A DNA stretch of 24,000 nucleotides, from contig NZ_PDOB01000003.1 of assembly GCF_002760665.1 (NCBI RefSeq), forward strand, positions 43,434 to 67,433, in the 5' to 3' direction. The notes under the pieces are model-generated. The model searched no databases and was not told where the DNA came from. It was given only the letters and a program-made list of their open reading frames with translations. Made by a program: the position numbers and the translations under genes. This document shows, piece after piece, positions 1,795-20,786 of this stretch (position 1 is its first letter; the number at the start of each line of letters is the position of its first letter). Source of the stretch: Massilia psychrophila (GTDB lineage Bacteria; Pseudomonadota; Gammaproteobacteria; Burkholderiales; Burkholderiaceae_D).

Positions 1795-1854
1795 CATGAC
1801 ATGAAACCGTTGCACCACGCTCGACCATCAAAGCGACACCACGAAGGGGACCAC

Positions 1855-6133: not shown

Positions 6134-8344
6134 TTAACGCGGGTCGAGATTCTTCTTGAAAAATGCCTCGATGGTGGCGTACACGTGGCGCTGGCCGGCG
6201 CGCGAGGAGATGCCGTGCTTGGCGCCAGGATAGGTCATCAGGTCGAACTTGATGCCGCGGTTGACCAGGCCGTCGATCAGGCGGGTGGTGTTGGTGAACA
6301 GCACATTGTCATCGGCCATGCCGTGAATCAGCAGCAGCGGCGACTTCAGGCCATCGAGGTGGGCGAACACGCCGCTCTGCTTGTAGGCTTCGGGGTCGGA
6401 CTTGGGCGTGGCGCCGACGAACTGTTCGGTGTAGTGGGTATCGTACAGCGCCCAGTCGGTCACCGGCGCCACCGACACGCCCATCGCGATCTTGCTTGAC
6501 GCGGCCGACAGCAGGCGCAGGCTCATGAACCCGCCGTAGCTCCAGCCGAATACGCCGACCCGCTTCGGATCGACGAACTTCTGCTTGGCCAGCCAATCGA
6601 TGCCGGTGACCTGGTCTTCGACCTCGTGCTTGCCCAGTTCCTTGTAGATGACGTCGGTGAATACGCGTTCGCGGCGCGAAGAACCGCGGTTATCGAGCCG
6701 GAACACGACGTAGCCTTGCTGCGCCATGTACTGGTCGAAATAGTTGCCCCATTTGCGGGCCACGTGCTGGGCGTGCGGGCCGCCGTAGGTCGACAGGAAC
6801 ACCGGGTAGCGCTTGCTGGCCTTGAAGTTGCTCGGTTTGATCATCGAGTAGTACAGCGTCTGGCCGTCGTTTGACGTCAAAGTGCCGTATTCGGTGGCCA
6901 GGTGGTCCAGCTTGAATTTGGCGTACGGATGGCTGCCGTCCAGTTCATTGCGCTCGAGCCAGCCGACCATCGCGCCGTCTGGCTTCCTGATCGAAATTTG
7001 CGGCGGCGTGTTCGGGTCCGAGAACGTATCGACGAATACTTCGCCGTTGCGCGAGAACGCCGCCTCGTGCCAGCCGTCGGCGGTGGTGATGCGAACCGGA
7101 GCGTCGGCGCCGCTGCCGTCAAGCGGGAGCGAATAGATCTGCTTGTCGACGACGTTGTCGCGGTTCGACGAAACGAACACGCGGCCGGTCTTTTCGTCGA
7201 CCGCCTGGACGTTGTCGATGCCCCAGGCGCCGCTCGACACGGTATGTATCAGCTTGCCATCCATGCCGTACAGATACAGGTGATTGCGGCCGCTGCGTTC
7301 GGACGACCATAGGAAGGCGTTCTGGCTTTCCAGGAAACGCAGGTCGTCGTGGATACTGACCCAGGTGGCCGAGGTTTCGGTGAGCAGCGTGCGCTGGGCC
7401 AGGGTGGCAGCATCGACCGCGATCAGGTCGAGGCGCTTCTGGTCGCGCGACTGGCGCTGGTACACCAAAAATTTGCTGTCGGCGCTGAAGTCGGCGCGTA
7501 CCAGGTAAATGTCCTTGTCGGCGCCGATGTCTACTTTGCGCTGCACGCCGGTAGCGGGCGAGACGATCATCAGCTCGGCGATGACGTTGGGGTCGCCGGC
7601 GGCCGGGTAACGCTGCTCGACGACGTCGGTACGGTCGGCAAAAATTTCGAAGCGACGCACCACCGGCACCGGCGCTTCGTCGAAGCGCTTGTAGGCGATG
7701 GCCGAATCGTCCGGCGCCCAGTAGTAACCGGTACGCTGGCCCATTTCTTCCTGCGCCACGAATTCGGCTTCGGCGTTGTGGATGGTGTCTTTTCCGTCAC
7801 TGGTCAGCTGCTTTTCGGCACCCGTGGTGAGGTCGATCACCACCAGGTTCTGGTTGCGCACGAACGAGACGTAGCGGCCCTTGGGTGAAATTTTCGGATC
7901 GGCGACATTGCCGGAAGCGACTTTACGCGCGCTGTCCGGATGGGCGGCGTCGACCAGGTACAGGTCGCCGCCGATCGGCACCAGCAGCTGCTTGCCGTCG
8001 GGCGACCAGCTGTAGTTCAGGATGCCGGTCAGGTTGGCGCTGCGGGAGCGCTCGCGGCGCGCCTGTTCCTCGGGTGAAATCGATTCGTTCGGCACCAGCA
8101 GTTTCGAGTCGACCAGGCGATGCGTCGTCTTGTCCTTCATGTTGAATTCCCACAGGTCCAGCTGGAACTGGTTGTCGGCACGGCCGCGCAGGAACGTGAT
8201 GCGTTCGCCGTCAGGCGATACGCGCAGGTTGCGCACGCCAGGTCCCGCCAGCGCCGGGTCGGCGTGGATACGGTCCAGTGTCAGGCGTTCGGCAGATGCG
8301 GGAACGGCCGACATGGCGGCTAAAAAACAAAGGAAAAAACGCAT
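6134..8344 (-). CDS. S9B family dipeptidyl-peptidase IV (736 aa, secreted)
   Basis: Signal peptide MRFFLCFLAAMSAVPASA. The DPPIV N-terminal beta-propeller region is followed by an alpha/beta hydrolase domain with catalytic GWSYGGF (Ser), HGMADDNV (Asp) and GAKHG (His). The start is set at ATG 8344; the 60 codons upstream in the track ORF look non-coding. Confidence 0.9.
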   Translation of the reverse strand: MRFFLCFLAAMSAVPASAERLTLDRIHADPALAGPGVRNLRVSPDGERITFLRGRADNQFQLDLWEFNMKDKTTHRLVDSKLLVPNESISPEEQARRERSRSANLTGILNYSWSPDGKQLLVPIGGDLYLVDAAHPDSARKVASGNVADPKISPKGRYVSFVRNQNLVVIDLTTGAEKQLTSDGKDTIHNAEAEFVAQEEMGQRTGYYWAPDDSAIAYKRFDEAPVPVVRRFEIFADRTDVVEQRYPAAGDPNVIAELMIVSPATGVQRKVDIGADKDIYLVRADFSADSKFLVYQRQSRDQKRLDLIAVDAATLAQRTLLTETSATWVSIHDDLRFLESQNAFLWSSERSGRNHLYLYGMDGKLIHTVSSGAWGIDNVQAVDEKTGRVFVSSNRDNVVDKQIYSLPLDGSGADAPVRITTADGWHEAAFSRNGEVFVDTFSDPNTPPQISIRKPDGAMVGWLERNELDGSHPYAKFKLDHLATEYGTLTSNDGQTLYYSMIKPSNFKASKRYPVFLSTYGGPHAQHVARKWGNYFDQYMAQQGYVVFRLDNRGSSRRERVFTDVIYKELGKHEVEDQVTGIDWLAKQKFVDPKRVGVFGWSYGGFMSLRLLSAASSKIAMGVSVAPVTDWALYDTHYTEQFVGATPKSDPEAYKQSGVFAHLDGLKSPLLLIHGMADDNVLFTNTTRLIDGLVNRGIKFDLMTYPGAKHGISSRAGQRHVYATIEAFFKKNLDPR

Positions 8345-8567
8345 GGATTGTCTCGATGTGATTGGTTGAACTGGAACAACTTCGAAACGATACCAGAGTC
8401 GGGTGGTGAACGCTGAACATACGGGAAGCCCTTGTATAAGCGAGCACGCTACAGTCAGGCCGTCGTTCCCGCGCAGGCGTTTCGCCCGATTTGGTAGCGG
8501 ACCGACGCAATTGGATCCCCGCATTCGCGAGGATGACGGCGTCGGAGCTTGTGGGAAGGAGACGATG

Positions 8568-9959
8568 TCAAGCTGCCAGCACGCGCCGATTGGCCAGCTT
8601 CCGCAACGCTATCGTCAGCAGCAGCGCCGCCACCGTCAGCCCCAGCACCAGTCCGATCCAGAATCCGAACGCAGCCATTGGCGCGCTTGGCGACCATGGA
8701 AACCAGGCCGGCGCCAGGCCCAGCACGTAGCCCAGCGGCAGCGAAAATATCCAGAACGCGACCAGCTGGATGACCATCGGCTGGCGCGTCACCTTGTAGC
8801 CGCGAATGGCGCTCGAAGCGGCCACTTGCGTTGCATCCGACAATTGGAACAGGGCCGCGAACAGCAGCAGCTGCACGCACAATTGCTGCACTTGCGGGTC
8901 GGACGTGTAGGCGCGCGCAATTTCCCAGCGAAACAGCGCGATGAAGCCGGCCGACAGCGCGCCGAACGCGATCGACATCGCCACCCCCACCCACGAGACA
9001 AAGCGCGCCTTGCGCGGATCGCCTCCGCCCAGGGACTGGCCGACCCGGGTGATGAGGGCGATGCCGAAGCTGAGCGGCACCATGAATACCAGCGAGGAAA
9101 AATTGAGGGCGATCTGGTGGGCCGATATCTGCACCACGCCGAAGCGCGCCACCAGCAGGCTGACCGCGCCGAACGCGCTGACCTCGGCAAAATAGGTGAC
9201 GCCGATCGGCAGGCCGAGCCGCAGCATGCTGCCGATCTCGGCCCAGTTCGGCCACTCCCAGTGGGTGAACGGAAACGTCTGCGTGTAGGCCGGCGCAATC
9301 CGGATCCAGGCGACCATCGCCGCCAGCATCAGCCACATGCTGACGGCGGTGGCCACCGCGCAGCCGACCGCGCCCATTTGCGGCATGCCGAGGTTGCCGA
9401 ACACCAGCAGCCAGTTGACGGCCACGTTGAACAGCAAGCCGCCGACGGCAATGATCATCACCGGCTTGGTCTGGTTGATGCTGGTGGTGTAGCCGTACAG
9501 CGCGCGGTAGCAGGCGAACGCCGGCATGCCCAGGCTGATGACGTGGACGAACATCGAGGCCTTGTCGTTGACTGCCTGCTCGAGCCCGATATGGTCGAAC
9601 AGCAAGGTCGACAGGTTCGCCGCGGCGCACGCCAATAAACCCACGCCGACGCCTTTCCACAGCGACTGGCGTACCGAGTGCGCAATCAAATGGTAATTGG
9701 CGGCGCCCATTTCGTGGGCGACGACGGTATTAATCGCCATCATGATGCCCATCACCGTGACCAGCACGATCGACCACACCGAGGCGCCCAGCGAGACGGC
9801 CGCCAGCTCCTCGGCGCTGACGTGGCCGGTCATGGCGACGTCGGCCACGCCCATGCCGACGGTGGCGAGCTGTCCGATCAGCATTGGCCAGGCCAGCTGC
9901 CACATGGCCTTGATTTCGGTAGCGACAGCGGAGGAGGGCGAAGCGATGGCGGTGGACAT
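8568..9959 (-). CDS. MATE family multidrug efflux transporter (NorM-like, 463 aa)
   Basis: About 12 predicted TM helices and the typical MATE N-terminus LAWPMLIGQLATVGMGVADVAMTGHVSAEELAAVSLG. The second half shows an internal repeat (LGLPIGVTYFAEVSAF). Confidence 0.9.
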   Translation of the reverse strand: MSTAIASPSSAVATEIKAMWQLAWPMLIGQLATVGMGVADVAMTGHVSAEELAAVSLGASVWSIVLVTVMGIMMAINTVVAHEMGAANYHLIAHSVRQSLWKGVGVGLLACAAANLSTLLFDHIGLEQAVNDKASMFVHVISLGMPAFACYRALYGYTTSINQTKPVMIIAVGGLLFNVAVNWLLVFGNLGMPQMGAVGCAVATAVSMWLMLAAMVAWIRIAPAYTQTFPFTHWEWPNWAEIGSMLRLGLPIGVTYFAEVSAFGAVSLLVARFGVVQISAHQIALNFSSLVFMVPLSFGIALITRVGQSLGGGDPRKARFVSWVGVAMSIAFGALSAGFIALFRWEIARAYTSDPQVQQLCVQLLLFAALFQLSDATQVAASSAIRGYKVTRQPMVIQLVAFWIFSLPLGYVLGLAPAWFPWSPSAPMAAFGFWIGLVLGLTVAALLLTIALRKLANRRVLAA

Positions 9960-10095
9960 GGAATGCGCGGCGGCGGAAACCGGTGATTTTACTGTCTATC
10001 CGCCAGTGCCGCCAACGATCTCATCGCCACTGACGCTGCCGGTAACGCAGGCAGATCGGCATGGCCGTCTGAACTTCGGCTCAGCGCGCATATCC

Positions 10096-10178
10096 CCGCT
10101 TTTTAAACGGGTCAGACCCCATTAAAAATTGGCTAAGGCAGGCTTGTTCCGCTTTTTAAACGGGTCAGACCCCATTAA
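10096..10178 (+). repeat. Two perfect 30-bp direct repeats (REP-like element), 53-bp period
   Basis: ccgctttttaaacgggtcagaccccattaa occurs at 10096-10125 and again at 10149-10178, separated by 23 bp. It contains the GGGTCTGACCC-type core (reverse strand) typical of REP-like elements. Confidence 0.9.
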
Positions 10179-10375
10179 TGGAGACGACCATCCCGCTGGA
10201 AAACATCCAGGATGTAACGTTTGTGGAGGAACCGATCCTGCGCCACATCCACCTCAGCACGCTGAAGTTCGACACCGCGGGGCATAGCGTCGGCCAGGTC
10301 TCCGACATGCACCTGACCGGCATCATCGAAGCGAGGCTCGAGGAGATCGTCGGCTTGCTGAAGCAAGGGCGCTAG
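10178..10375 (+). pseudogene. 5'-truncated remnant of a bPH_2 (YdbS/YdbT-like bacterial PH domain) membrane protein gene
   Basis: The 65-aa ORF TIPLENIQDVTFVEEPILRHIHLSTLKFDTAGHSVG matches only the C-terminal half of the bPH_2 domain. The N-terminal TM helices and first beta strands are missing. Its ATG overlaps the last base of the second REP copy. Confidence 0.45.
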
Positions 10376-10391
10376 CTGATAGTTGCGCCGC

Positions 10392-11294
10392 TCAGTAGCG
10401 CCCAACCTCAACCGGCGGCAGCGACTTCAGGTAGGTGTACACGGCGAGCAGGTCGGTGTCGGTCATGTGCTTGAACGAATCGACCGGCATTACCGGGCTG
10501 ATCGGCGTGCCGTCCGGCCGGCGGCCGCTGCGCATGGTCGCCATGAAAACGTCGCCCGTCGGGTAGCGGGGCATGACGCTGCCCTTGCCGGGCGTCAGGT
10601 TGGCAGTGGCTGGCCAGGACGGCGGCGCGCCGGGAACGACGCCGCCGCTCAGGCGCGCGCCGTGGCAACCGATGCAGGTGTTGGCCACATAGGCGCCATG
10701 CTCGATCGACACCGCGGGCGCCACCGGCATCGAGGGCGGTAACGCGTGATCGATTTTTTCGGCAGCGTCTTTTACCGCGCCGAACGCATACAGGACTTTG
10801 ACCATGGCCGGCAGCTCGATCACCGGCGCGATGCCGGCCGCCGGCGGCAATTGCCTGACGTAGGCAATCACCGCCGCCATGTCGGCGTCGGTGAGGCGGT
10901 TGTAGTCTTCGCTCGGCATGATCATGATCGGCTTGCCGTTCGGCTTGACGCCGTGGCGCACCGTGCGCACCCAGTCCTCGACCTTGTAGGCGCTCGTTAC
11001 GCTGTTGGCGCCGGCGGTGATGTTGGGCGAAATGACCAGCATCGCACCCTCTTGCATGACGGTCTTGCCGGCGCCGTTGGCGCCATGGCAATCGACGCAG
11101 CCGCGGGTGCTGAACAGGTAGCGGCCCTGTTCGACCTCGGCCGGGTCGCCGCGCACGTCGACCGGCGCCACCTGCAGCGCGATTGTGCGCACCAGCTTGC
11201 GCTCGCCCGCGGCTTTGCCGCCGATCACCGTTGCGACGCCGGCCAGTGCCAGCAGACCCAACCCGATGCTGGTGCGTCTCATCCACTTGTTCAT
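10392..11294 (-). CDS. Diheme c-type cytochrome (300 aa, exported)
   Basis: Two CxxCH haem-binding motifs (CVDCH and CIGCH) and an N-terminal signal/anchor MNKWMRRTSIGLGLLALAGVATVIG. The start is set at ATG 11294, preceded by an AAGGAA RBS. Confidence 0.85.
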   Translation of the reverse strand: MNKWMRRTSIGLGLLALAGVATVIGGKAAGERKLVRTIALQVAPVDVRGDPAEVEQGRYLFSTRGCVDCHGANGAGKTVMQEGAMLVISPNITAGANSVTSAYKVEDWVRTVRHGVKPNGKPIMIMPSEDYNRLTDADMAAVIAYVRQLPPAAGIAPVIELPAMVKVLYAFGAVKDAAEKIDHALPPSMPVAPAVSIEHGAYVANTCIGCHGARLSGGVVPGAPPSWPATANLTPGKGSVMPRYPTGDVFMATMRSGRRPDGTPISPVMPVDSFKHMTDTDLLAVYTYLKSLPPVEVGRY

Positions 11295-11482
11295 GGCATG
11301 TTCCTTTTTTTCAACACTACTCCGTGGTATCAATTTATCATGTTAGCAATAATGAAATAAGTGATAAATCAAACCGCTGTCATGTTTTCCCGGTAAAGTG
11401 CAGTCATCAAAAGCGAGCAGTGCGCCGCCGCGCGCAGCGCTGCAGTACGATCAAAAAAAACCAATGCCGGGAGTGCTGTTTC

Positions 11483-12412
11483 GTGGAATACAAAGATTAT
11501 TACCAAAGTCTGGGCGTCGAGAAAGCCGCCTCGGCCGACGACATCAAGAAGGCTTACCGCAAGCTGGTGCGCAAGTACCATCCCGACGTCAGCAAGCACA
11601 AGGATTCCGATAGCAAGACCAAGGAAATCAACGAAGCCTACGGCGTGCTGGGCGACGCTGAAAAACGTACCGCTTATGACGAGCTCGGCAGCGGCGGGCG
11701 CGCCGGCCAGCGATTCCAGCCGCCGCCCGACTGGGCCTCGTCTTTCGGCGGCGGTGCGAACGGCGCCGACAGCGATTTCTTTTCCGACCTGTTTGCCAAT
11801 GTGGGACAGCGCTCGCGCGGGCGTGGACCGGGCGCCGGCTACCAGGCGCGCGGCGAAGACATTCACGCCGCCATCACCGTCGACCTGGTCGATCTCTACC
11901 ACGGCGCCACCCGCACCGTCACCATGCGCGTGCCGCAGCGCGACGCCAGCGGCCGGGCGGTGACCACCGACAAGTCGATCGAAGTGAAGATTCCCAAAGG
12001 CGTGTTGCCGGGCCAGCAATTGCGCCTGTCCGGCCAGGGTCATCCCGGCATCGGCGGCGGCGGTAGCGGCGACCTGTTTCTCGAAATCGGCCTCAAGAGC
12101 GACCAGCGTTACCGTGTCGATGGCAGCCACGTATACGAAACCGTACCGGTGACGCCGTGGGAAGCGGCGCTCGGCGCCGGCATTGCCGTGCCGACGCCAT
12201 CGGGCGATGTCGAAGTCACGGTACCGGCCGGCTCGCAAACCGGGCGCAAGCTGCGCTTGAAGGGGCGCGGCATTCCAGCCCGGCTGCCGGGCGACCTGTA
12301 CCTCGTCCTTGAAGTGGTATTGCCGCCGGCCGACAATGAAAAGGCCCGCGCCCTGTACGAAACCATGGCGCGCGAGCTTGCCTTCAACCCGCGCGCGCGC
12401 ACCGGAGCTTGA
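11483..12412 (+). CDS. cbpA: Curved DNA-binding protein CbpA (DnaJ-like co-chaperone, 309 aa)
   Basis: J domain KDYYQSLGVEKAASADDIKKAYRKLVRKYHPDVSK with the HPD motif, plus DnaJ C-terminal beta domains. There is no zinc-finger region, which is typical of CbpA. The start is GTG 11483 after GGGAG, and cbpM follows within a few nt. Confidence 0.85.
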   Translation: MEYKDYYQSLGVEKAASADDIKKAYRKLVRKYHPDVSKHKDSDSKTKEINEAYGVLGDAEKRTAYDELGSGGRAGQRFQPPPDWASSFGGGANGADSDFFSDLFANVGQRSRGRGPGAGYQARGEDIHAAITVDLVDLYHGATRTVTMRVPQRDASGRAVTTDKSIEVKIPKGVLPGQQLRLSGQGHPGIGGGGSGDLFLEIGLKSDQRYRVDGSHVYETVPVTPWEAALGAGIAVPTPSGDVEVTVPAGSQTGRKLRLKGRGIPARLPGDLYLVLEVVLPPADNEKARALYETMARELAFNPRARTGA

Positions 12413-12414
12413 CC

Positions 12415-12723
12415 ATGTCACAAGACGATCCCGTGAACGCCGTGCCGCTCGAAGAAGTGGCCCTCAGTGTCGAGGAACTGGCGCGCGCCTGCGCCGTCGA
12501 GCCCGATTGGGTGGTGCGCCACATCCGCGCCGGCGTCCTCGGCGAAGGCGACAGCATCGAAATCACTTCGGTGCGCTTTCGCAGCGGCGACCTGCTGCGC
12601 GCGCGCGGCCTGCTGAGCCTGGAGCAGACCTTCGACGCCAACGAGGAGATCGCCGCCCTGGTGCTCGACCTCGGCGACGAAATCCATCGCCTGCGCGCGC
12701 GCCTGCGGGTGCTCGAAGGCTGA
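12415..12723 (+). CDS. cbpM: Chaperone-modulator CbpM (MerR_2-like, 102 aa)
   Basis: Small ORF starting 3 nt after the cbpA stop, with SVEELARACAVEPDWVVRHIRAGVL and a C-terminal helix, which is the canonical cbpA-cbpM pairing. An in-frame TTG at 12409 is an alternative start. Confidence 0.75.
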   Translation: MSQDDPVNAVPLEEVALSVEELARACAVEPDWVVRHIRAGVLGEGDSIEITSVRFRSGDLLRARGLLSLEQTFDANEEIAALVLDLGDEIHRLRARLRVLEG

Positions 12724-12879
12724 GCGTTCGCGCAGTACCCGCCAAAAACCGGACATCCCCCCTGCGTCGCGCCGGCCGGATTTCCGCTGCCTTAATATTT
12801 GTCCACGACAATTATATCGATACCCGTATAATTTCTTCCTATCCGTCACCGCCGACGCTCACTCTGCTACCCTCCGTAC

Positions 12880-14445
12880 ATGGTAAAGATCAACCCGGTT
12901 CCGTCCACTTCCCCCCGGCGCACCATCTGTTTCGACCGCAATCGCCTTCAACTCGAGGATATCGCCGCCGTGGCCGACGGCAGCGCGCGCGCCGTCTTGT
13001 CGTCCGACCCGGCGTTTCGCGCCGCGATTGCGCGCGGCCCGGCCTTTCTCGACCGCTTGCTGCAAGAGGAGGGCGTCATCTACGGCGTCACGACCGGCTA
13101 CGGCGACTCCTGCACGGTGCCGGTGCCGGCTGAACTGGTGGCCGAATTGCCCCACCAGCTCTACACTTATCACGGCTGCGGCCTGGGGGCGTTCCTGACG
13201 CCGGCGCAAACCCGCGCCGTCATGGCAACGCGCCTGGCGTCGCTGTGCAAAGGTTTTTCAGGGGTCTCGGTTGCGCTCCTCGAACAGATCGTGGGCCTGC
13301 TCGATGCCGGCATACTGCCGCTGATTCCTTCGGAAGGTTCGGTTGGCGCGAGCGGCGACCTGACGCCGTTGTCGTACCTCGCGGCGGTGCTGTGCGGCGA
13401 GCGCGAGGCGTGGTGCAACGGTGAGCACGTGGCGGCGGGCGAAGCGCTGGTTGCCGCCGGCATGGCGCCGCTGCGCCTGCGGCCGAAGGAAGCGCTGGCG
13501 ATCATGAACGGCACTGCCGTGATGACCGGCTTGGCCGTGCTCGCCTATGGCAGCGCCGAGTACCTGGGCCAGCTAACTACGCGCATCACGGCCATGGCGT
13601 CGATCGCGCTCGACGGCAACGCCGATCATTTCGACGAGGTCCTGTTTTCGGTCAAGCCGCATCCCGGCATGCAGCGGATAGCCGCGCGCATCAGGGGCGA
13701 CCTGCCGCGCGCCGAGCGCGCGCGCAACGGCAATCGCGTGCAGGACCGCTATTCGATCCGCTGCGCGCCCCACGTCATCGGGGTGCTCGAAGACAGCCTG
13801 CCATTTTTCCGCCAGCTGATCGACAATGAGCTTAACAGCGCCAACGACAACCCCATCATCGACGCCGACGGCGAGCACGTGCTGCATGGCGGTCACTTTT
13901 ACGGCGGCCATATCGCCCTTGCCATGGATACCTTGAAAAATACCGTGGCAAACCTGGCCGATTTGATGGACCGGCAGATCGCCCTGCTGGTCGATGCGCG
14001 CTACAACAACGGCCTGCCGCCCAACCTGTCCGGTGCGACGGGGCCGCGGATCGCAATCAATCACGGCCTGAAGGCGCTACAGATCAGTTGCTCGGCCTGG
14101 ACCGCCGAAGCGCTGAAGCTGACCATGCCGGCATCGGCCTTTTCGCGCTCCACCGAGTGCCACAACCAGGACAAGGTCAGCATGGGCACCATCGCGGCGC
14201 GCGACTGCCTGCGCGTGATCGAGTTGACCGAGCAAGTTGGCGCAGCCTTGCTGATCGCGGTACAGCAAGCCGTGCGGCTGCGCTGCGAACTCGACCCAAA
14301 GCTGGCGCTGTCGGCCGCGGTCGCCGCGATGATGGCATCGCTCGCCGCCGACGTCGCGCCGGTAGAAGAAGACCGGCGCCTCGACCTTGACCTCCACCTG
14401 TTGTTGACGCGCATTCGCGGCAAGGCATGGCGCCTCTATGTGTAA
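12880..14445 (+). CDS. tal: MIO-dependent aromatic amino acid ammonia-lyase, predicted tyrosine ammonia-lyase (521 aa)
   Basis: HAL/PAL/TAL family motifs: YGVTTGYG, the MIO-forming GASGDL (Ala-Ser-Gly at 13348-13356), QDRYSIRCAPHV and NDNP. The TAL call rests on the position immediately upstream of pyp-pcl and on a length similar to the Rhodobacter TAL. Confidence 0.75.
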   Translation: MVKINPVPSTSPRRTICFDRNRLQLEDIAAVADGSARAVLSSDPAFRAAIARGPAFLDRLLQEEGVIYGVTTGYGDSCTVPVPAELVAELPHQLYTYHGCGLGAFLTPAQTRAVMATRLASLCKGFSGVSVALLEQIVGLLDAGILPLIPSEGSVGASGDLTPLSYLAAVLCGEREAWCNGEHVAAGEALVAAGMAPLRLRPKEALAIMNGTAVMTGLAVLAYGSAEYLGQLTTRITAMASIALDGNADHFDEVLFSVKPHPGMQRIAARIRGDLPRAERARNGNRVQDRYSIRCAPHVIGVLEDSLPFFRQLIDNELNSANDNPIIDADGEHVLHGGHFYGGHIALAMDTLKNTVANLADLMDRQIALLVDARYNNGLPPNLSGATGPRIAINHGLKALQISCSAWTAEALKLTMPASAFSRSTECHNQDKVSMGTIAARDCLRVIELTEQVGAALLIAVQQAVRLRCELDPKLALSAAVAAMMASLAADVAPVEEDRRLDLDLHLLLTRIRGKAWRLYV

Positions 14446-14495
14446 AAGGCAACGTTCAATTTGTTCTGGACAAACGATGGGGCAACAGTAATGTG

Positions 14496-14524
14496 TTGAT
14501 GGCGATTAATCGTTGTAGTATGAC
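14496..14524 (+). promoter_or_regulatory. Candidate sigma-70 promoter for pyp with a palindrome in the spacer
   Basis: TTGATG-17 nt-TATGAC lies about 65 nt upstream of the pyp ATG. The spacer contains the perfect 10-bp palindrome cgattaatcg (14503-14512). This is sequence-only evidence and is weak. Confidence 0.3.
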
Positions 14525-14590
14525 AATATCGTAGGCGCAATTCGGCTGCCATGCGGTCTGCCGCCAACCTCCACTTTTTAGGAAATCACC

Positions 14591-14977
14591 ATGCTAGAAC
14601 TTGAAACCATTGCTTTCGGGAAAACAGGCATCGAAAACGTCCTCGGCAAGCTGGCGGACAAGGACTTCGACAAGCTGGCTTTTGGTGCCATCGAACTGGA
14701 CAAGAATGGCACGGTATTGAAATACAACTCGGCCGAGGGAGCCATCACCGGGCGCGATCCGGCGACCGTCATCGGCAAGAATTTTTTCCGCGATGTTGCT
14801 CCATGCACCGCCAAGCCGGCGTTCAAAGGGGTGTTCGATGCCGGTGTCAAGGCAGGCAACCTGAACACGATGTTTGAGTACGTGTTCGACTATCAGATGC
14901 AAGCGACCAAGGTCAAGGTACACATGAAACGCTCGATCAGCGGCACGTCGTACTGGGTCTTCGTCAAGCGCATCTGA
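14591..14977 (+). CDS. pyp: Photoactive yellow protein (PYP, 128 aa)
   Basis: A gapless by-eye alignment to Halorhodospira halophila PYP (recalled from memory) gives about two-thirds identity. Conserved blocks are [57 protein letters not shown] and SYWVFVKR. The chromophore Cys (Cys72, TGC 14804-14806) and pocket residues Tyr45, Glu49, Thr53 and Arg55 are all present. An AGGA RBS precedes the ATG. Confidence 0.95.
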
Positions 14978-14992
14978 CCAATCGGCGGCGGC

Positions 14993-16234
14993 GTGGCGAT
15001 CAAACAGCCGGTGGCCCCGGTGTGGTGGGAACATGATGCGCATCTGCTGCGCTTTGTGTGCGACCTGGTGGCCGGCGAGTTGTCGCTGCTGCGCCGCAGC
15101 CGCGTCGAGCCGGGCTTGCCCTGGCCCGGGACGCTGCATATCGGACGCGATCTTGGCGCCGACTCGCTCGAAGTACTCTCTGTCGCCACCGCATTGTCCG
15201 ACATGCTGCATCTGCACCGGTCGGGGATCGAGGATTACCTGTTGGCCCGGTTGGAAATCGAAGAGTGGGCAGCGATTGCCCGCCAGAGCCTGCGCCAGTT
15301 TTCAGCCGAACTGACGTTTCGCACCTCCGGTAGCGCGGGTATTCCGAAACGCTGCACCCACCCCGTGTCGTCGCTTTGGCAAGAGGTAGCCGTCCTGGCG
15401 GCGTTGCTGCCGGGACGGCGGCGCATCCTCAGCGCCGTGCCTAGCCATCACATCTACGGCTTCCTGTTTACGGTGCTGTTACCGCAGGCGCCCGGCATGC
15501 AAGACCTGGATGTGCTCGATGTGCGCGGCAGCTCCGCGGCTCGGCTGGCGCACGAACTGCGTGCTGGCGACCTGGTCGTGGCGCATCCCGAATTTTGGCG
15601 CGCCGCGCTGCAGTCGCAACCGTTATTCGCGCCCGGCGTAATCGGGGTGACGTCGAGCGCCCCATGTCCGGATGAACTGGCCGAGGCATTGCTGGCGGCA
15701 GGCCTGGACAAACTGATCCAGGTATATGGCAGTTCCGAAACCGGCGGCGTAGGGTGGCGCGAGTCTGCCGCTGCGCCTTTTCAAGCCTTCCCGTACTGGC
15801 GGCGCGTGGCTGAGGACGATGCGGTGCTCGAGCGTACGCTGCTTGACGGCGCATGCGCGCGTTGCGCCATCCAGGATACGCTGGAATGGGTCGGCACCGA
15901 CACCTTTCGACCCGCGGGCCGGATCGACCAGGCGGTGCAGGTCGCCGGCATCAATGTGTTTCCGGCCCAGGTGGCTGCCGCATTGCGCGAACACCCGGCG
16001 GTGCTTGACGCCTCCGTGCGGCTGATGCGCGCCGACGAGGGCAACCGGCTCAAGGCATTTATCGTGCCCCGCGCGGCGCACGCCGATCGCGTCATGCTGC
16101 AGGCGCAACTGGCGGCATGGTCGCGCGAGCGCTTCGACAGCTCCCAGCGGCCGATGGCGTTTTCATTCGGCAGTCAGTTGCCAAGGCAGGCCAACGAAAA
16201 GCTGGCGGACTGGATCATCGACGCTACCGGTTAA
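14993..16234 (+). CDS. pcl: 4-coumarate-CoA ligase of the PYP-activation family (pCL, 413 aa)
   Basis: Short adenylate-forming enzyme with TSGSAGIPKR (P-loop/A3) and YGSSETGG (A5), plus a C-terminal KAF and PRQANEKL-type region. It starts at GTG 14993, 15 nt after the pyp stop. The N-terminal 95 aa or so carry a carrier-protein-like LGADSLEVL motif. Confidence 0.8.
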   Translation: MAIKQPVAPVWWEHDAHLLRFVCDLVAGELSLLRRSRVEPGLPWPGTLHIGRDLGADSLEVLSVATALSDMLHLHRSGIEDYLLARLEIEEWAAIARQSLRQFSAELTFRTSGSAGIPKRCTHPVSSLWQEVAVLAALLPGRRRILSAVPSHHIYGFLFTVLLPQAPGMQDLDVLDVRGSSAARLAHELRAGDLVVAHPEFWRAALQSQPLFAPGVIGVTSSAPCPDELAEALLAAGLDKLIQVYGSSETGGVGWRESAAAPFQAFPYWRRVAEDDAVLERTLLDGACARCAIQDTLEWVGTDTFRPAGRIDQAVQVAGINVFPAQVAAALREHPAVLDASVRLMRADEGNRLKAFIVPRAAHADRVMLQAQLAAWSRERFDSSQRPMAFSFGSQLPRQANEKLADWIIDATG

Positions 16235-16298
16235 GGCAGCGCAGTTGCCCGCCCTACTGGCAAGGTTGCACGCCAGCCGCGGCCGAAACGCTGGCAGC

Positions 16299-17468
16299 TC
16301 AAGACGCCTTGAGTGCCGGATAATCGATATAGCCACCCGCGCCGCCACCGTACATGGTGGCTGGGTCCGGCGTGTTCAACGGTGCCACGATGCGCAGTCT
16401 CTGAACCAGATCCGGATTGGCGATGAACGGACGGCCAAAGGCAATCAGGTCAGCGCTGTCGCTGGCGCGGGCGGCCAGGGCCAGGTCCAGATCGTAGCCG
16501 TTGTTGGCCATGAACAGCCCGTTGAACAGGCGGCGCAGAATCTGCAGGTCGAAGCCGCCGGGCACCTCGCGCGCGCCGCCGGTGTCGCCTTCGATTACGT
16601 GCAGATAGGCCAGATGAAAACGGTTGAGCTGTTCGACAGCGTAGGTGAACAGCGCCTGCGGGTTGCTGTCGGCGATGTCGCCAAAGGCACTGAGCGGCGA
16701 AATCCGGATGCCGACCCGATCACCGCCCCAGACCTGGACCACGGCTTCCGTCACTTCCAGCACCAGCCGTGCGCGGTTTTCGATCGAGCCGCCATAGGCA
16801 TCGGTGCGCTGGTTGGTCTTGTCGCGCAAGAACTGGTCGAGCAGATAGCCGTTCGCCGCATGGATTTCGACGCCGTCGAAACCGGCGGCCTTGGCATTGT
16901 GTGCAGCGCTGCGGTATTGCTCGACGATCGAGGCGATTTCGCTCGTTTCCAAAGCGCGCGGTGTCACCATCGGTACGAAACCGTCGTTGGTATAGGACTG
17001 GCCTTCGGGTTTGATTGCCGAAGGTGCCACAGGTAAAGCGCCGTCGACTTGAATCGATGGATGGGAAATGCGCCCTACGTGCCACAGCTGCAGGAAAATC
17101 TTGCTGCCGGCCGCATGCACGGCCTCGGTAATCTTTTTCCAGGCTTGTACTTGCGCGTCACTGTAAATGCCGGGCGTGAAAATGTAGCCTTTGCCCTGTG
17201 GGGAAATCTGGGTAGCTTCGGCAATAATCAGTCCGGCGCCAGCGCGCTGCACGTAGTATTCGGCGGCCAGGTCACCGGGGATATCGTCTTCCTTTGCGCG
17301 GCTGCGCGTCAGCGGCGCCATGACGATGCGATTGGACAATTGCAGCGGTCCGAGTTGCATCGGCTTGAACAGATCGCTCGATGCGTTGCGATCGACTGCA
17401 GCGTCGTGCGCGGCGGTAGTGGCGGTAGTGGCGTTAATGGCGTTAGTGGCGGTCATGGAACTGGTCAT
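16299..17468 (-). CDS. Old Yellow Enzyme family NADH:flavin oxidoreductase / alkene reductase (389 aa)
   Basis: LFKPMQLGPLQLSNRIVMAPLTRSRA, QLWHVGR, GFDGVEIHAANGYLLDQFL and GRPFIANPDL are typical of OYE/NemA. The start is set at ATG 17468 (AGGA RBS); ATG 17456 is an alternative. Confidence 0.9.
   Translation of the reverse strand: MTSSMTATNAINATTATTAAHDAAVDRNASSDLFKPMQLGPLQLSNRIVMAPLTRSRAKEDDIPGDLAAEYYVQRAGAGLIIAEATQISPQGKGYIFTPGIYSDAQVQAWKKITEAVHAAGSKIFLQLWHVGRISHPSIQVDGALPVAPSAIKPEGQSYTNDGFVPMVTPRALETSEIASIVEQYRSAAHNAKAAGFDGVEIHAANGYLLDQFLRDKTNQRTDAYGGSIENRARLVLEVTEAVVQVWGGDRVGIRISPLSAFGDIADSNPQALFTYAVEQLNRFHLAYLHVIEGDTGGAREVPGGFDLQILRRLFNGLFMANNGYDLDLALAARASDSADLIAFGRPFIANPDLVQRLRIVAPLNTPDPATMYGGGAGGYIDYPALKAS
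17412..17456 (-). repeat. Imperfect 9-bp tandem repeat x5 at the 5' end of the OYE gene
   Basis: The + strand reads ggcggtagt ggcggtagt ggcgttaat ggcgttagt ggcggtcat. This encodes MTA-TNA-INA-TTA-TTA at the N-terminus. Confidence 0.9.
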
Positions 17469-17786
17469 TATTTGATCCTGTAAAAGAGGAGCGGCGCGGC
17501 GCGCTGCTTTGACTGCGGCTTCCATGCTTGAACGTACGAAACGATGGCGCGCAATCAATTTGAAAGGAGATATCTTAGACGCAAAGGCAGATCGGCGTCG
17601 GACCCGACAGAAGTTGTTACTCAGGTACTATGCTGAGACGTGGCACAGCCAAGCCTTCATAATTGGCCTTTTCGATGCGGTCGGGCCTGCCGGCACAGAA
17701 CAAGGCGAGTGTCGGCGCTGGCGCTGTAGGGACCGGCGCTGTCGCTCTTGGTTGGACAATGCCGGTGCGCCGGGCACCGTACGCCG

Positions 17787-18095
17787 TCAGGCCTTCTTGA
17801 CCCAGGCGGCGCACCATCCTTTCGCGCTCACCTGCTTGCCGCCAAACGCACCGCACGGCGCCATCGGGTCGGTCGACTTGCCGGCGTACAGCTGGCAATT
17901 GGCGCACAGGCGATCTTTGGCGTAGGTGGGCCACTTCTTGACGTCGACCTTGCTGGCGTCTGCCTTGTAGCCCAATGCCACGGCCGCCGGATCGGACTCG
18001 GGCAGCACCTCGGCACGGGCGAACGCAGTTTTGCCGAGGCCGAGAGACAGGGCGGCGGCGGGAATCGTAGTAAGGAAGATACGGCGCGTTGTCAT
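17787..18095 (-). CDS. High-potential iron-sulfur protein (HiPIP, 102 aa precursor)
   Basis: Tat signal TTRRIFLTTIPAAALSLGLGKTAFA. The mature domain has the four-Cys HiPIP pattern C.NC...(12)...C...(13)...GWCAAW. Confidence 0.85.
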   Translation of the reverse strand: MTTRRIFLTTIPAAALSLGLGKTAFARAEVLPESDPAAVALGYKADASKVDVKKWPTYAKDRLCANCQLYAGKSTDPMAPCGAFGGKQVSAKGWCAAWVKKA

Positions 18096-18190
18096 GATAA
18101 CTCCTTCGGAACGTGAACAAGAAGTGTACCAACATCTTTTCGCAGAATCGCGCGTTTCGTTTGAAATATCACGCTATACTTGAGTTTTGC

Positions 18191-18223
18191 CGGTTCACTT
18201 ACGGTTCATTCTTGGTTCAATCA
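18191..18223 (+). promoter_or_regulatory. Three tandem 11-bp direct repeats (candidate operator of the MerR/LitR-like regulator)
   Basis: cGGTTCActta / cGGTTCAttct / tGGTTCAatca. GGTTCA occurs at 18192, 18203 and 18214, exactly 11 bp apart. The array lies about 10 nt downstream of a TATACT hexamer (18175-18180) and ends at the regulator's ATG (18223). Confidence 0.5.
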
Positions 18224-19197
18224 TGATTGTCTTGCAAATTAAAACGAAGGACGCCGCTCCCGCCGTGGGCTATCGCAGCGGCGTCGCCGCGCGGCTCGCC
18301 GGCCTGCCGGTGGAAACGCTGCGGGTCTGGGAGCGCCGCTACGGCGTCTGCGACACGCGCCGTTCGGCGCACGGTCAGCGGCTCTATTCGGAAGCCCAGG
18401 TCGGCCGGCTCAGCCTGATCAAGCAACTGGTCGATCATGGCCATCCGATCGGTTCCTTGGCACAGTTGGAACTCGACCAGCTGCGCGCGATGGCGCCGGC
18501 GTCGCGCGCGCCGTCGCGGCCGCTGCGGCTGGCGCTGGTGGGTCAGGCAATGGCGCTGCGGCTGTCCGGCAGCAGGAGTGCCTGGCCGGGACTCGACATC
18601 GTCGGCAAGTGCCGGGAACTCGATGGCGCCGCAGCGGCATTGGCCGGCAGCAGCGCCGAGGTGCTGCTGATCGAAGTGGCGGAGCTGGACGACAGCGCGC
18701 TGCCGGCGATCGTCGCGCTGCGCCAGCAGCTGGGCGCGGCAATCGTGGTGCTGTACCGCTTCTGCGCCAGCGCGACGATCCGCCATCTGCGCGAGCAGGG
18801 GTGCCTGGTGGCGCGCGTGCCGGCCGACGCCGCTGAAATTGTGCTGCTGTGCCAAGCTGCGTTGGCGGCCGTGGTGGGGCAGGCGGAGCAGGCGGGGCAA
18901 GCGGATCTGCCGCAGCACGCGCCATCGGCCGCGCGCCGCTTCGACGACGAGGCGTTGTCCGCGTTGTCCGCGGCGAGCAACAGCGTGGCCTGCGAATGCC
19001 CGCGCCACCTGTGCGACATCCTGCTCATGATCAACAGCTTCGAGCGCTACAGCTTGCAGTGCGCTTCGCGCACGCCGGCCGACGCGCTGCTGCATGAACA
19101 GCTGGGCATCGCCGCCGGCTCCGCGCGCGTGCTGCTGGAAGCGGCCCTCGAGCAGCTGGCGCGGGCCGATGGCCTGCCGCTGCCCGCCGCACTGTAG
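18223..19197 (+). CDS. MerR-family transcriptional regulator with a long non-canonical C-terminal region (LitR/CarH-like architecture, 324 aa)
   Basis: MerR HTH: YRSGVAARLAGLPVETLRVWERRYGVCDTRRSAHGQRLYSEAQVGRLSLIKQLV. This is followed by a Rossmann/receiver-like alpha-beta region (RLALVGQ, VLLIEVAELDD, AIVVLY) and a C-terminal CECPRHLC...C cluster. An AGGAGG RBS for the photolyase gene overlaps its stop. The start is uncertain (ATG 18223 or in-frame TTG 18187). Confidence 0.8.
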   Translation: MIVLQIKTKDAAPAVGYRSGVAARLAGLPVETLRVWERRYGVCDTRRSAHGQRLYSEAQVGRLSLIKQLVDHGHPIGSLAQLELDQLRAMAPASRAPSRPLRLALVGQAMALRLSGSRSAWPGLDIVGKCRELDGAAAALAGSSAEVLLIEVAELDDSALPAIVALRQQLGAAIVVLYRFCASATIRHLREQGCLVARVPADAAEIVLLCQAALAAVVGQAEQAGQADLPQHAPSAARRFDDEALSALSAASNSVACECPRHLCDILLMINSFERYSLQCASRTPADALLHEQLGIAAGSARVLLEAALEQLARADGLPLPAAL

Positions 19198-19208
19198 GAG
19201 GTCCGCCC

Positions 19209-20786
19209 ATGCCGCGCCCTGATTCAGAGTTTGATCCGGTGGTTGACGCCACCCCCGCCACCACGCTGCGCCTGCTGCTGGGCGACCAGCTCAACGCGCA
19301 GCATTCCTGGTTCCGGCACCGCCACGACGACGTCGTGTATGTGCTGATGGAAGTACGCCAGGAAACCGACTACGTCCTGCATCACGCGCAAAAAATCATC
19401 GCCATTTTTGCCGGCATGCGCGAGCTGGCGCGCCAGCTCGCTGCAAGCGGCCACCGGGTCTGCTATCTCACTATCGACGACGCCGCCAACTTGCAGTCGC
19501 TGCCGGCCAACCTGGACATGCTGCTGGCGCGCTACAGTGCCGCCGAATTCGAATATCAGGCGCCCGACGAATGGCGTCTGGATGCGCAAATGGCGACGTA
19601 TACGCGCACGCTGGCGGTGCGTTCGGCCATGGTCGACAGCGAACATTTTTACAGCGCGCACGGCGAAGCCGCGCAGTTGTTCAGCAAACGCCAGCGATGG
19701 TTGATGGAGCATTTCTACCGCGCCATGCGCGTCAAGCACAAGGTGCTGGTCGACGCCGACGACAAGCCGCTCGGCGGCCAGTGGAATTTCGACCATGACA
19801 ACCGCAAGTCGTGGCCGGGAACGCCGACCGCGCCGGCCGACTGGCGCGCGCCGCACGACCATTCGGCGCTATGGGAAACGATCCAGAAAGCCGGCGTCGC
19901 CAGCTTTGGCGCGCCGCACGCAGCGGCCCTGGCCTGGCCGCTCAACCGCGACGAGGCGTTACAGCACCTCGATGCCTTTGTCGAACACGCGTTGCCGCAT
20001 TTTGGCCAGTTCCAGGATGCCATGAGCAGCCGCTCGTCGCGCCTGTTCCATTCGCTGCTGTCGTTCGCCCTCAACACGAAAATGCTCAACCCGCGCGAAG
20101 TCGTCGCCAGGGTCGAATCTGCCTGGCACGCGGGCCACGCCCCGCTCGCCGCCGTCGAAGGGTACATCCGCCAGATCCTCGGCTGGCGCGAGTACGTGCG
20201 CGGCGTGTACTGGGAACAGATGCCGGAGTATGTGGAGCGCAACGTGTTTGGCCACACCCGGGCCTTGCCTGGCTGGTTCTGGACCGGCCAGACCAAGATG
20301 CGCTGCATGGCCAGCGCGATCGGCGACTCGCTCGAACACGCGCATACCCACCACATCCACCGCCTGATGGTGATCGGTAACTTCGCCTTGGTGGCAGGGC
20401 TCGATCCGGTCGCGCTGCACCACTGGTACCTCGGCGTATATATCGACGCGTTCGAATGGGTCGAACTGCCCAACACGCTGGGCATGAGTCAGTTCGCCGA
20501 TGGCGGCATGCTGGCCACCAAACCGTACGTGTCGAGCGCGGCGTATATCGACCGCATGAGCGATTACTGCAAAGGCTGCCATTACGACAAGAAGCAGCGT
20601 TTGGGCGAGCGGGCTTGCCCCTTCAATGCGCTGTATTGGGATTTTTTTGCGCGCAATGAAGAGCGGCTGGCGAGTAATCCGCGCATTGGGATGGTATATC
20701 CGCAGTTGCGCAAGATGGAGCCGGAGGCGGTGAAAGCGTTAAGGGAGAAGGCGGGGGAGTTGAGGGCGCAGCTCGATGGGTTGTAA
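19209..20786 (+). CDS. phrB: Iron-sulfur bacterial cryptochrome/photolyase (FeS-BCP; PhrB/CryB-like (6-4) photolyase, 525 aa)
   Basis: COG3046-type N-terminus (LRLLLGDQLN) and an FAD-domain signature. Four Cys lie at 366, 454, 457 and 470; the 88/3/13 spacing equals the [4Fe-4S] ligands Cys350/438/441/454 of Agrobacterium PhrB as I recall them (MRCMA, DYCKGCHYD, ERACPFN). Confidence 0.9.
   Translation: MPRPDSEFDPVVDATPATTLRLLLGDQLNAQHSWFRHRHDDVVYVLMEVRQETDYVLHHAQKIIAIFAGMRELARQLAASGHRVCYLTIDDAANLQSLPANLDMLLARYSAAEFEYQAPDEWRLDAQMATYTRTLAVRSAMVDSEHFYSAHGEAAQLFSKRQRWLMEHFYRAMRVKHKVLVDADDKPLGGQWNFDHDNRKSWPGTPTAPADWRAPHDHSALWETIQKAGVASFGAPHAAALAWPLNRDEALQHLDAFVEHALPHFGQFQDAMSSRSSRLFHSLLSFALNTKMLNPREVVARVESAWHAGHAPLAAVEGYIRQILGWREYVRGVYWEQMPEYVERNVFGHTRALPGWFWTGQTKMRCMASAIGDSLEHAHTHHIHRLMVIGNFALVAGLDPVALHHWYLGVYIDAFEWVELPNTLGMSQFADGGMLATKPYVSSAAYIDRMSDYCKGCHYDKKQRLGERACPFNALYWDFFARNEERLASNPRIGMVYPQLRKMEPEAVKALREKAGELRAQLDGL

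Follow-up and report, generated by a model that had tools for sequence, protein, structure and literature searches.

A tal-pyp-pcl cassette predicted to supply holo-photoactive yellow protein in Massilia psychrophila

The tal-pyp-pcl genes and their products

We analyzed a 24-kb stretch of DNA from Massilia psychrophila, a member of the family Oxalobacteraceae in the order Burkholderiales (the whole stretch is hereafter called the window), and found in it three intact codirectional open reading frames (ORFs), all on the + strand, for a predicted tyrosine ammonia-lyase (TAL; tal), a photoactive yellow protein (PYP; pyp), and a PYP-type p-coumarate-coenzyme A (CoA) ligase (pcl). The spacers are 145 nt between tal and pyp and 15 nt between pyp and pcl, and the gene coordinates and gaps given in the initial annotation of this DNA were exact. 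The betaproteobacterial context proposed there was also right, as the PYP matches with 100% identity the RefSeq entry "photoactive yellow protein [Massilia psychrophila]." The cassette is laid out as follows; the last line gives the segment shared with two Glaciimonas metagenome-assembled genomes (MAGs; L001 and L002) and two metagenome contigs (L084 and L085).

12880-14445, + strand: tal, 521 amino acids; aromatic amino-acid ammonia-lyase dependent on 4-methylideneimidazole-5-one (MIO), predicted "Tyr-His"-type TAL; PF00221
14591-14977, + strand: pyp, 128 amino acids; photoactive yellow protein; TIGR02373
14993-16234, + strand: pcl, 413 amino acids; PYP-type p-coumarate-CoA ligase; TIGR02372
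12794-16222, + strand: tal-pyp-pcl module common to other genomes at the DNA level (blastn against L001/L002 and L084/L085)

The pyp product scored 184.8 bits against the NCBIfam equivalog TIGR02373 (cutoff, 143.05 bits) over model positions 1 to 124 of 124, which identifies it as an equivalog-level PYP rather than a generic PAS protein. Pfam likewise reports a PAS fold, and the protein aligns end to end with PYP chains of the PDB (E value, 2.8e-54), consisting of a single PAS core and an N-terminal cap with no further domain. It shares 66% identity with the PYP of Halorhodospira halophila. Since this alignment is gapless with an offset of +3, Tyr45, Glu49, Thr53, Arg55, and Cys72 are equivalent to positions 42, 46, 50, 52, and 69 of the H. 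halophila protein, so that the chromophore-binding Cys and all pocket residues claimed for it are indeed present. The FDYQM stretch (residues 96 to 100) is likewise kept.

We found more than 1,400 PYP homologues, and many of those from Massilia, Glaciimonas, Herminiimonas, Noviherbaspirillum, Herbaspirillum, Bordetella, Pusillimonas, and Castellaniella already bear the name PYP. For the comparison of loci, one genome per species was scanned; this gave PYP loci in 253 species-level genomes, the best 80 of which were searched by tblastn with the window proteins and used for neighborhood counts, whereas the palindrome described below was counted over 84 loci and neighboring ORFs within about 6 kb of pyp were clustered over 81 loci. 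Burkholderiales accounted for 33 of the best 80. Besides, the survey of Dohmen et al. (2025; PMC12826048) covers 984 PYPs from many phyla and predicts 113 pyp operons, with TAL in 7 (upstream of pyp in 2) and pCL in 42, and its supplement holds the sequence identical to the window PYP (WP_099914574.1, Massilia psychrophila) together with a second PYP homologue of the same species. This second homologue is WP_099917596.1, and PAS-GGDEF genes adjoin it. The RefSeq name and the presence in the list of 984 PYPs mean that the window PYP has already been annotated and catalogued. The view of PYP as mainly a protein of phototrophs and halophiles, from which the initial annotation started, is outdated in light of the 253 genomes, the Burkholderiales share, and the 984-member survey; PYP is common in nonphototrophic Burkholderiales.

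The pcl product contains PF00501 (AMP-binding) and PF13193 (AMP-binding_C), along with the motifs TSGSAGIPK and YGSSETGG. It matched TIGR02372 (PYP-type 4-coumarate-CoA ligase) with 326.1 bits over model positions 9 to 385 of 386, while the second-best NCBIfam family reached 63 bits, and a pcl homologue was found directly 3' of pyp in 78 of the 80 related loci by tblastn. The score is just short of the model's cutoff; the near-full-length match and this linkage support the assignment as a PYP-type coumarate ligase. In the two metagenome contigs L084 (12107-13340) and L085 (6140-7373), pcl lies in three reading frames, with tal and pyp intact; the split points either to a pseudogene or to an error in assembly.

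The tal product matched PF00221 (Lyase_aromatic) over its full length (E value, 1.6e-154), and its best relative of solved structure is the Rhodobacter sphaeroides TAL (RsTAL; 2O6Y/2O78; E value of about 1e-73; 38% identity). The MIO triad Ala-Ser-Gly occupies residues 157 to 159; the catalytic residues Tyr68, Asn210, Tyr291, Arg294, Asn429, and Gln430 are kept; and Asn-Gln-Asp (residues 429 to 431) aligns with the equivalent RsTAL segment. Membership in the MIO family, as proposed initially, is thus secure. The second half of that proposal, conversion of tyrosine to p-coumarate, is what we infer from gene context, and it carries less weight: the lyase has Tyr97-His98 at the position of the RsTAL selectivity pair His89-Leu90 and is therefore not classed as a Rhodobacter-type TAL.

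Lyases beside pyp fall into two types: the canonical His-Leu lyases (Halomonas, Alkalimonas, and others), which are 33 to 40% identical to the window lyase, and a (Tyr/Phe)-His-Gly-Cys-Gly type, which occurs in the window, Glaciimonas, and Idiomarina (57 to 61% identity for Idiomarina). A pyp-linked lyase of a spirochete is 49% identical and has the related motif Tyr-His-Gly-Val-Gly, and three unrelated lineages (Glaciimonas, Idiomarina, and the spirochete) have a Tyr/Phe-His lyase linked to pyp-pcl. The nearest homologues outside the cassette, with 74 to 78% identity, have Tyr-His in 118 of 120 cases, and many homologues of this kind come from Janthinobacterium, Undibacterium, Massilia, Rugamonas, and Pseudoduganella. 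All three contexts that we examined (Janthinobacterium, Massilia glaciei, and a metagenome contig) turned out to be aryl-polyene-type clusters, with ApeI-like and ApeP-like genes, ketosynthases, two acyl carrier proteins, a glycosyltransferase, LolA, and MMPL but no pyp; a halogenase-like flavoprotein was present in two of the three.

L081, 10001-11557: lyase homologue in an aryl-polyene cluster, Tyr-His, 74 to 78% identity
L083, 10001-11560: as above
L086, 8001-9557: as above

In a neighbor-joining tree, the pyp-linked lyases of Massilia and Glaciimonas are sister to the aryl-polyene lyases, and those of Idiomarina and the spirochete branch outside. Aryl-polyene clusters would need an aryl-acid starter; the pyp and aryl-polyene contexts would both call for a hydroxyphenyl acid, which lends support to TAL activity.

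Modularity and upstream regions of the cassette

DNA homology with L001/L002 and L084/L085 was confined to positions 12794-16222 (79 to 84% identity by blastn), the flanks being unrelated, and the lyase of L084/L085 is 91% identical to that of the window. A lyase gene lay within 10 kb of pyp in 25 of the 80 loci. The order tal-pyp-pcl, with the lyase upstream, was seen among them only in the two Glaciimonas MAGs, and Gammaproteobacteria have pyp-pcl-tal; of the 33 Burkholderiales loci retrieved, these same two Glaciimonas loci were the only ones with a lyase within 10 kb.

A further contig (L087), reached via cbpM homologues, is syntenic with window positions 7791-20753 at 81 to 94% nucleotide identity, with two exceptions: a DJ-1/PfpI gene stands in place of 12730-14589 (tal and its flanking spacers), and the stretch 18209-19248 with a MerR gene is missing.

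L087, 5259-5858: DJ-1/PfpI family gene between cbpM and pyp, at the place of tal, on this Massilia-like contig

The arrangement cbpA-cbpM-DJ-1 without pyp occurs in further relatives, with the cbpM-DJ-1 pairing in L090 and L091. Because L087 has pyp-pcl but a DJ-1/PfpI gene for tal, the cassette is a two-part one, in which pyp-pcl is resident between cbpM and the old yellow enzyme (OYE) gene in this Massilia lineage and tal is variable. The genes pyp and pcl make up one unit, which has a conserved promoter region to itself, and tal is a separate upstream unit.

The following elements were recognized upstream of the two units.

12799-12811, no strand: palindrome TTGTCCACGACAA (TTGTC-N3-GACAA), copy 1, exact; overlaps the -35 region of the tal promoter-like site
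12805-12832, + strand: predicted sigma-70-like promoter before tal, ACGACA-16 nt-TATAAT, 10 of 12 matches
14461-14473, no strand: palindrome TTGTTCTGGACAA, copy 2, one mismatch; 130 nt before the start codon of pyp

The CGTATAA core, which holds the -10 hexamer of the tal promoter-like site, was invariant in all five aligned sequences. Copy 1 of the palindrome lies 5 nt inside the left edge of the shared module and is identical in the Glaciimonas MAGs, in which both copies are kept; in L084/L085, the palindrome upstream of pyp is exact and the tal-upstream copy has two mismatches. The right half of copy 2, TGGACA, stands at -35 distance from TAATGT in the Massilia/Glaciimonas type, and in Noviherbaspirillum a TTGACA hexamer follows 4 to 5 nt after the palindrome. 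Of 84 loci, 16 had the palindrome, with at most one mismatch, 101 to 156 nt upstream of pyp, against an expected number of 0.34; all 16 are from Oxalobacteraceae or Alcaligenaceae, and the sequence around the palindrome has diverged. The tal-less contig L087 also has it upstream of pyp, and the palindrome therefore belongs to an autonomous pyp-pcl promoter. Its occurrence both at the tal promoter and upstream of pyp suggests that a single DNA-binding protein coregulates the two, i.e., that the palindrome is a putative operator of a dimeric regulator controlling tal and pyp-pcl together. It is unlike the LitR consensus of PplR1/PmlR2 (TGTACA-N12-TGTACA), and a literature search with its half-sites returned nothing relevant.

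In the tal leader (12839-12879), the blocks ATCCGTCA and CTCACTCTGCTA are invariant between Massilia and Glaciimonas and better kept than coding DNA, and no Shine-Dalgarno-like sequence precedes the ATG. An RNA element in the 145-nt gap or in this leader was considered and rejected: Rfam gave no credible match in either, and the fold of the leader was not better than that of shuffled sequence (z = 0.74).

A predicted holo-PYP gene set and its possible output

Taking these data together, we consider it probable (roughly 85%) that tal-pyp-pcl is a self-sufficient gene set for holo-PYP, which would act as a cytoplasmic blue-light receptor in a nonphototrophic Massilia. The MIO lyase would deaminate L-tyrosine to trans-p-coumaric acid, which the truncated adenylate-forming ligase would convert with ATP and CoA into p-coumaroyl-CoA, and the acyl group would be passed to Cys72 of apo-PYP as a thioester. 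The phenolate would then be held by Tyr45, Glu49, and Thr53 and shielded by Arg55. Upon absorption of blue light, the chromophore would isomerize and be protonated by Glu49, and unfolding of the N-terminal cap would produce the signaling state. These steps follow established knowledge of the PYP family.

The output step would most likely go through a separately encoded partner acting on cyclic di-GMP (c-di-GMP) or biofilm, because the nearest relatives of the cassette lie between operons for PYP-like, PAS-GGDEF, and GGDEF-EAL proteins. In Glaciimonas and L084/L085, a divergent operon flanking tal-pyp-pcl encodes a PYP-like protein, a PAS-GGDEF protein, and a GGDEF-EAL protein, and L085 (probably also the truncated L084) has a second pair of PYP-like and PAS-GGDEF genes downstream of the module. 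The PYP-like proteins are 26 to 27% identical to the window PYP and keep the equivalents of Tyr42, Glu46, and Cys69, with Ala for Thr50 and Leu for Arg52. Those flanking tal-pyp-pcl, 127 to 130 amino acids long, are the following.

L084, 9410-9802, - strand: divergent PYP-like protein
L084, 13666-14049, + strand: divergent PYP-like protein
L001, 7679-8071, - strand: divergent PYP-like protein

The first and the third head operons with PAS-GGDEF or GGDEF-EAL genes; the second probably heads such an operon too, the gene that follows it being annotated in L085 alone. A single tal/pcl pair may serve several PYP paralogues. Over the 80 loci, PAS-GGDEF-EAL genes were found in 14 and genes for methyl-accepting chemotaxis proteins (MCPs) in 10, and GGDEF/EAL neighbors occur in L001, L002, L084, and L085. 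This accords with the survey of Dohmen et al. (PMC12826048), in which GGDEF/EAL genes are the commonest in pyp operons; GGDEF/EAL proteins, histidine kinases, and MCPs are proposed there as PYP partners, and its supplement already includes the PYP-like/GGDEF/EAL operons of Massilia and Glaciimonas. As cited in the same paper, the PYP of Idiomarina loihiensis controls biofilm in a nonphototroph.

Domain and family profile searches of the whole 24 kb detected no gene for photosynthesis, in agreement with the initial annotation, and none for GGDEF/EAL, histidine-kinase, or MCP proteins. The search for a conserved neighbor as output partner was likewise unproductive, only pyp, pcl, and tal recurring widely in the 81 clustered loci and none of the PAS-GGDEF-EAL or MCP genes of other loci having a counterpart in the window. 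Hence, the earlier statement that no output partner is adjacent is correct for the classical partner types, but it passed over a CarH/LitR-like MerR gene and a (6-4) photolyase homologue 2 kb downstream, to which we return below.

Several observations weigh against a self-sufficient, co-regulated cassette with this output. The selectivity pair of RsTAL is replaced in the lyase, two further pocket residues differ from RsTAL (Met405 to Lys398 and Asn432 to Glu426), and the top NCBIfam match of the lyase is hutH, below its cutoff. The pcl product falls 8.6 bits short of the curated TIGR02372 cutoff of 334.7 bits; the pyp-linked ligases of Glaciimonas and L087 score 324.5 and 318.9 bits, and the whole ligase branch therefore lies just below that cutoff. 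A partner gene is missing from the window, and the c-di-GMP output is an analogy. As for the palindrome, its Poisson P value of about 1e-21 ignores shared ancestry, and clustering of the neighboring ORFs (81 loci, about 6 kb around pyp) found no regulator gene conserved beside pyp.

The lyase leaves room for the strongest alternative, namely that its substrate is histidine or phenylalanine or that it is a stray aryl-polyene enzyme, the p-coumarate coming from elsewhere (e.g., from plants or another enzyme) or the chromophore being a different one. The Tyr97-His98 pair fits this idea, as His89Phe by itself turns RsTAL into a phenylalanine ammonia-lyase (Watts et al. 2006, as cited in PMC9002059), and so do the hutH match, the aryl-polyene-type clusters without adjacent pyp that house the closest homologues, the majority of Burkholderiales pyp loci without a lyase within 10 kb, and the replacement of tal by DJ-1/PfpI in the syntenic relative. 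Nevertheless, the lyase stays far below the cutoffs of HutH (TIGR01225; 394.3 versus 539.15 bits), FlxA (NF053541; 314 versus 700 bits), and BagA (NF041222; 377 versus 1000 bits), and the window has no hut genes. The alignment of Asn-Gln-Asp with RsTAL, the linkage of this lyase type to pyp-pcl in three unrelated lineages, and the promoter palindrome common to tal and pyp also argue for a TAL, and the aryl-polyene context would itself imply a hydroxyphenyl acid product. We thus regard this alternative as unlikely.

The two genes downstream of the cassette raise another possibility for the output.

18223-19197, + strand: MerR-family regulator, 324 amino acids; helix-turn-helix (HTH) domain nearest to CarH/LitR (3WHP, 5C8D)
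19209-20786, + strand: FeS-BCP/CryPro (6-4) photolyase homologue (7YKN; E value, 1.8e-154), 11 nt after the MerR gene

The C-terminal part of the MerR protein, about 230 amino acids, had no Pfam or PDB match, and its AlphaFold single-sequence model had a mean predicted local distance difference test score (pLDDT) of 42 and was not used for a fold search. The pair resembles a LitR-type light-response unit, possibly of class III. Class II LitR was shown to be the effector of a short light-oxygen-voltage (LOV) protein, and the C terminus of Burkholderia-type class III LitR is without a known domain (PMC9758184). Light-activated PYP might bind the MerR protein and relieve repression of the photolyase gene, as in the short-LOV/class II LitR pair of Pseudomonas mendocina. 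Such a role would agree with the CarH/LitR-like HTH, the C-terminal part lacking a known domain as in Burkholderia class III LitR, the 11-nt spacing to the photolyase gene, the distance of 2 kb from pcl, and the precedent of a LitR controlled by a small blue-light receptor that lacks an effector; if true, it would be the PYP version of that antirepressor pair, and the MerR protein would be the long-sought first signaling partner of a stand-alone PYP. We nonetheless hold it to be quite improbable, more so than the lyase alternative, because the link to pyp is seen in this lineage alone and L087 retains pyp-pcl and the photolyase gene without the MerR gene. Even at an E value of 1e-3, searches of 86 other loci gave no homologue of this MerR protein or of the photolyase less than 10 kb from pyp; the MerR/photolyase promoter does not contain the pyp/tal palindrome; and two unrelated opposite-strand genes (OYE and the high-potential iron-sulfur protein [HiPIP]) intervene between pcl and the MerR gene. 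The proximity to pyp is lineage specific and probably coincidental, and a dedicated regulator of tal and pyp across Oxalobacteraceae and Alcaligenaceae, marked by the palindrome, is a likelier reading than one in which PYP acts on this MerR protein.

The other neighbors were also considered as functional partners and rejected, as no homologue of CbpA/CbpM, the OYE reductase, HiPIP, the MerR protein, or the photolyase was near pyp in any other lineage. A diheme c-type cytochrome gene (10392-11333, - strand) and the HiPIP gene (17787-18095, - strand) lie on either side of the cassette region. Electron carriers of these two kinds are often tied to phototrophs; here they occur in a nonphototrophic genus, and they are not linked to pyp elsewhere. 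Farther away, an M13 peptidase gene (1801-3907, + strand) is interrupted and spread over three ORFs whose frames differ, with the N-domain at 1801-3339 and the catalytic domain divided over 3349-3849 and 3440-3907; it is either a frameshifted pseudogene or a sequencing error.

Finally, the notion that the cassette was left by a horizontal transfer and is now decaying, without a working photoreceptor, for which one could cite the variable presence of tal at the site, the pcl split over three frames in the closest metagenomic relatives (L084/L085), and the dip in G+C content (0.587 over pyp versus about 0.66 in the flanks), is hardly credible, given that all three ORFs are full length with end-to-end matches to their family models, that three independent metagenome assemblies carry the same locus with an identical PYP, all genes intact, and the order kept from cbpA to aldehyde dehydrogenase, and that the pocket residues, promoter elements, and ribosome-binding region of pyp are conserved.

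Comparison with known systems

The cassette belongs to a known system and is not unusual within it; the three-gene logic of this system dates back to the H. halophila operon. What the present analysis adds is modest: the two-part build of the cassette, a noncanonical Tyr-His lyase of a kind also found in aryl-polyene clusters, the promoter palindrome, and the GGDEF/EAL setting of relatives. Because lyase genes are scarce near pyp in the retrieved Burkholderiales (2 of 33 loci, both from Glaciimonas, at up to 10 kb), this rare complete Burkholderiales set in one place is convenient for heterologous production of holo-PYP. Besides, it would allow a test of whether the Tyr-His lyase clade is a true TAL, and the palindrome and the GGDEF/EAL neighborhoods are testable leads on the regulation and the signaling target of PYP.

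With the prototype, the pyp-pcl-tal operon of H. halophila, the cassette has in common the three functions, a PYP of 66% identity with identical pocket residues, and pcl directly after pyp. It differs in the order tal-pyp-pcl, in having tal as a separate upstream unit, in its host, a nonphototrophic and nonhalophilic betaproteobacterium, and in its lyase, which belongs to another clade than the His-Leu type beside pyp in Halomonas/Alkalimonas-like loci. The pyp operon of Idiomarina loihiensis is closer with respect to the lyase clade (Phe-His there, Tyr-His here) and likewise resides in a nonphototrophic host, whereas its order is pyp-pcl-tal, its pcl protein is only 35 to 38% identical, and a biofilm role is described for its PYP. 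The PYP-like/PAS-GGDEF/GGDEF-EAL operons of Massilia and Glaciimonas flank the same module in Glaciimonas and L084/L085 and are absent from the window.

As for the lyase itself, the TAL of Rhodobacter sphaeroides/capsulatus (2O6Y) shares the MIO triad and the conserved catalytic Tyr, Arg, and Asn, although the identity is only 38% and His89-Leu90, Met405, and Asn432 of that enzyme correspond to Tyr97-His98, Lys, and Glu here. The aryl-polyene lyases of Oxalobacteraceae (Janthinobacterium, Massilia glaciei, and Undibacterium) are far nearer, being 74 to 78% identical, of the Tyr-His type, and members of the sister clade; they are embedded in clusters without pyp, whereas the window lyase stands alone upstream of pyp.

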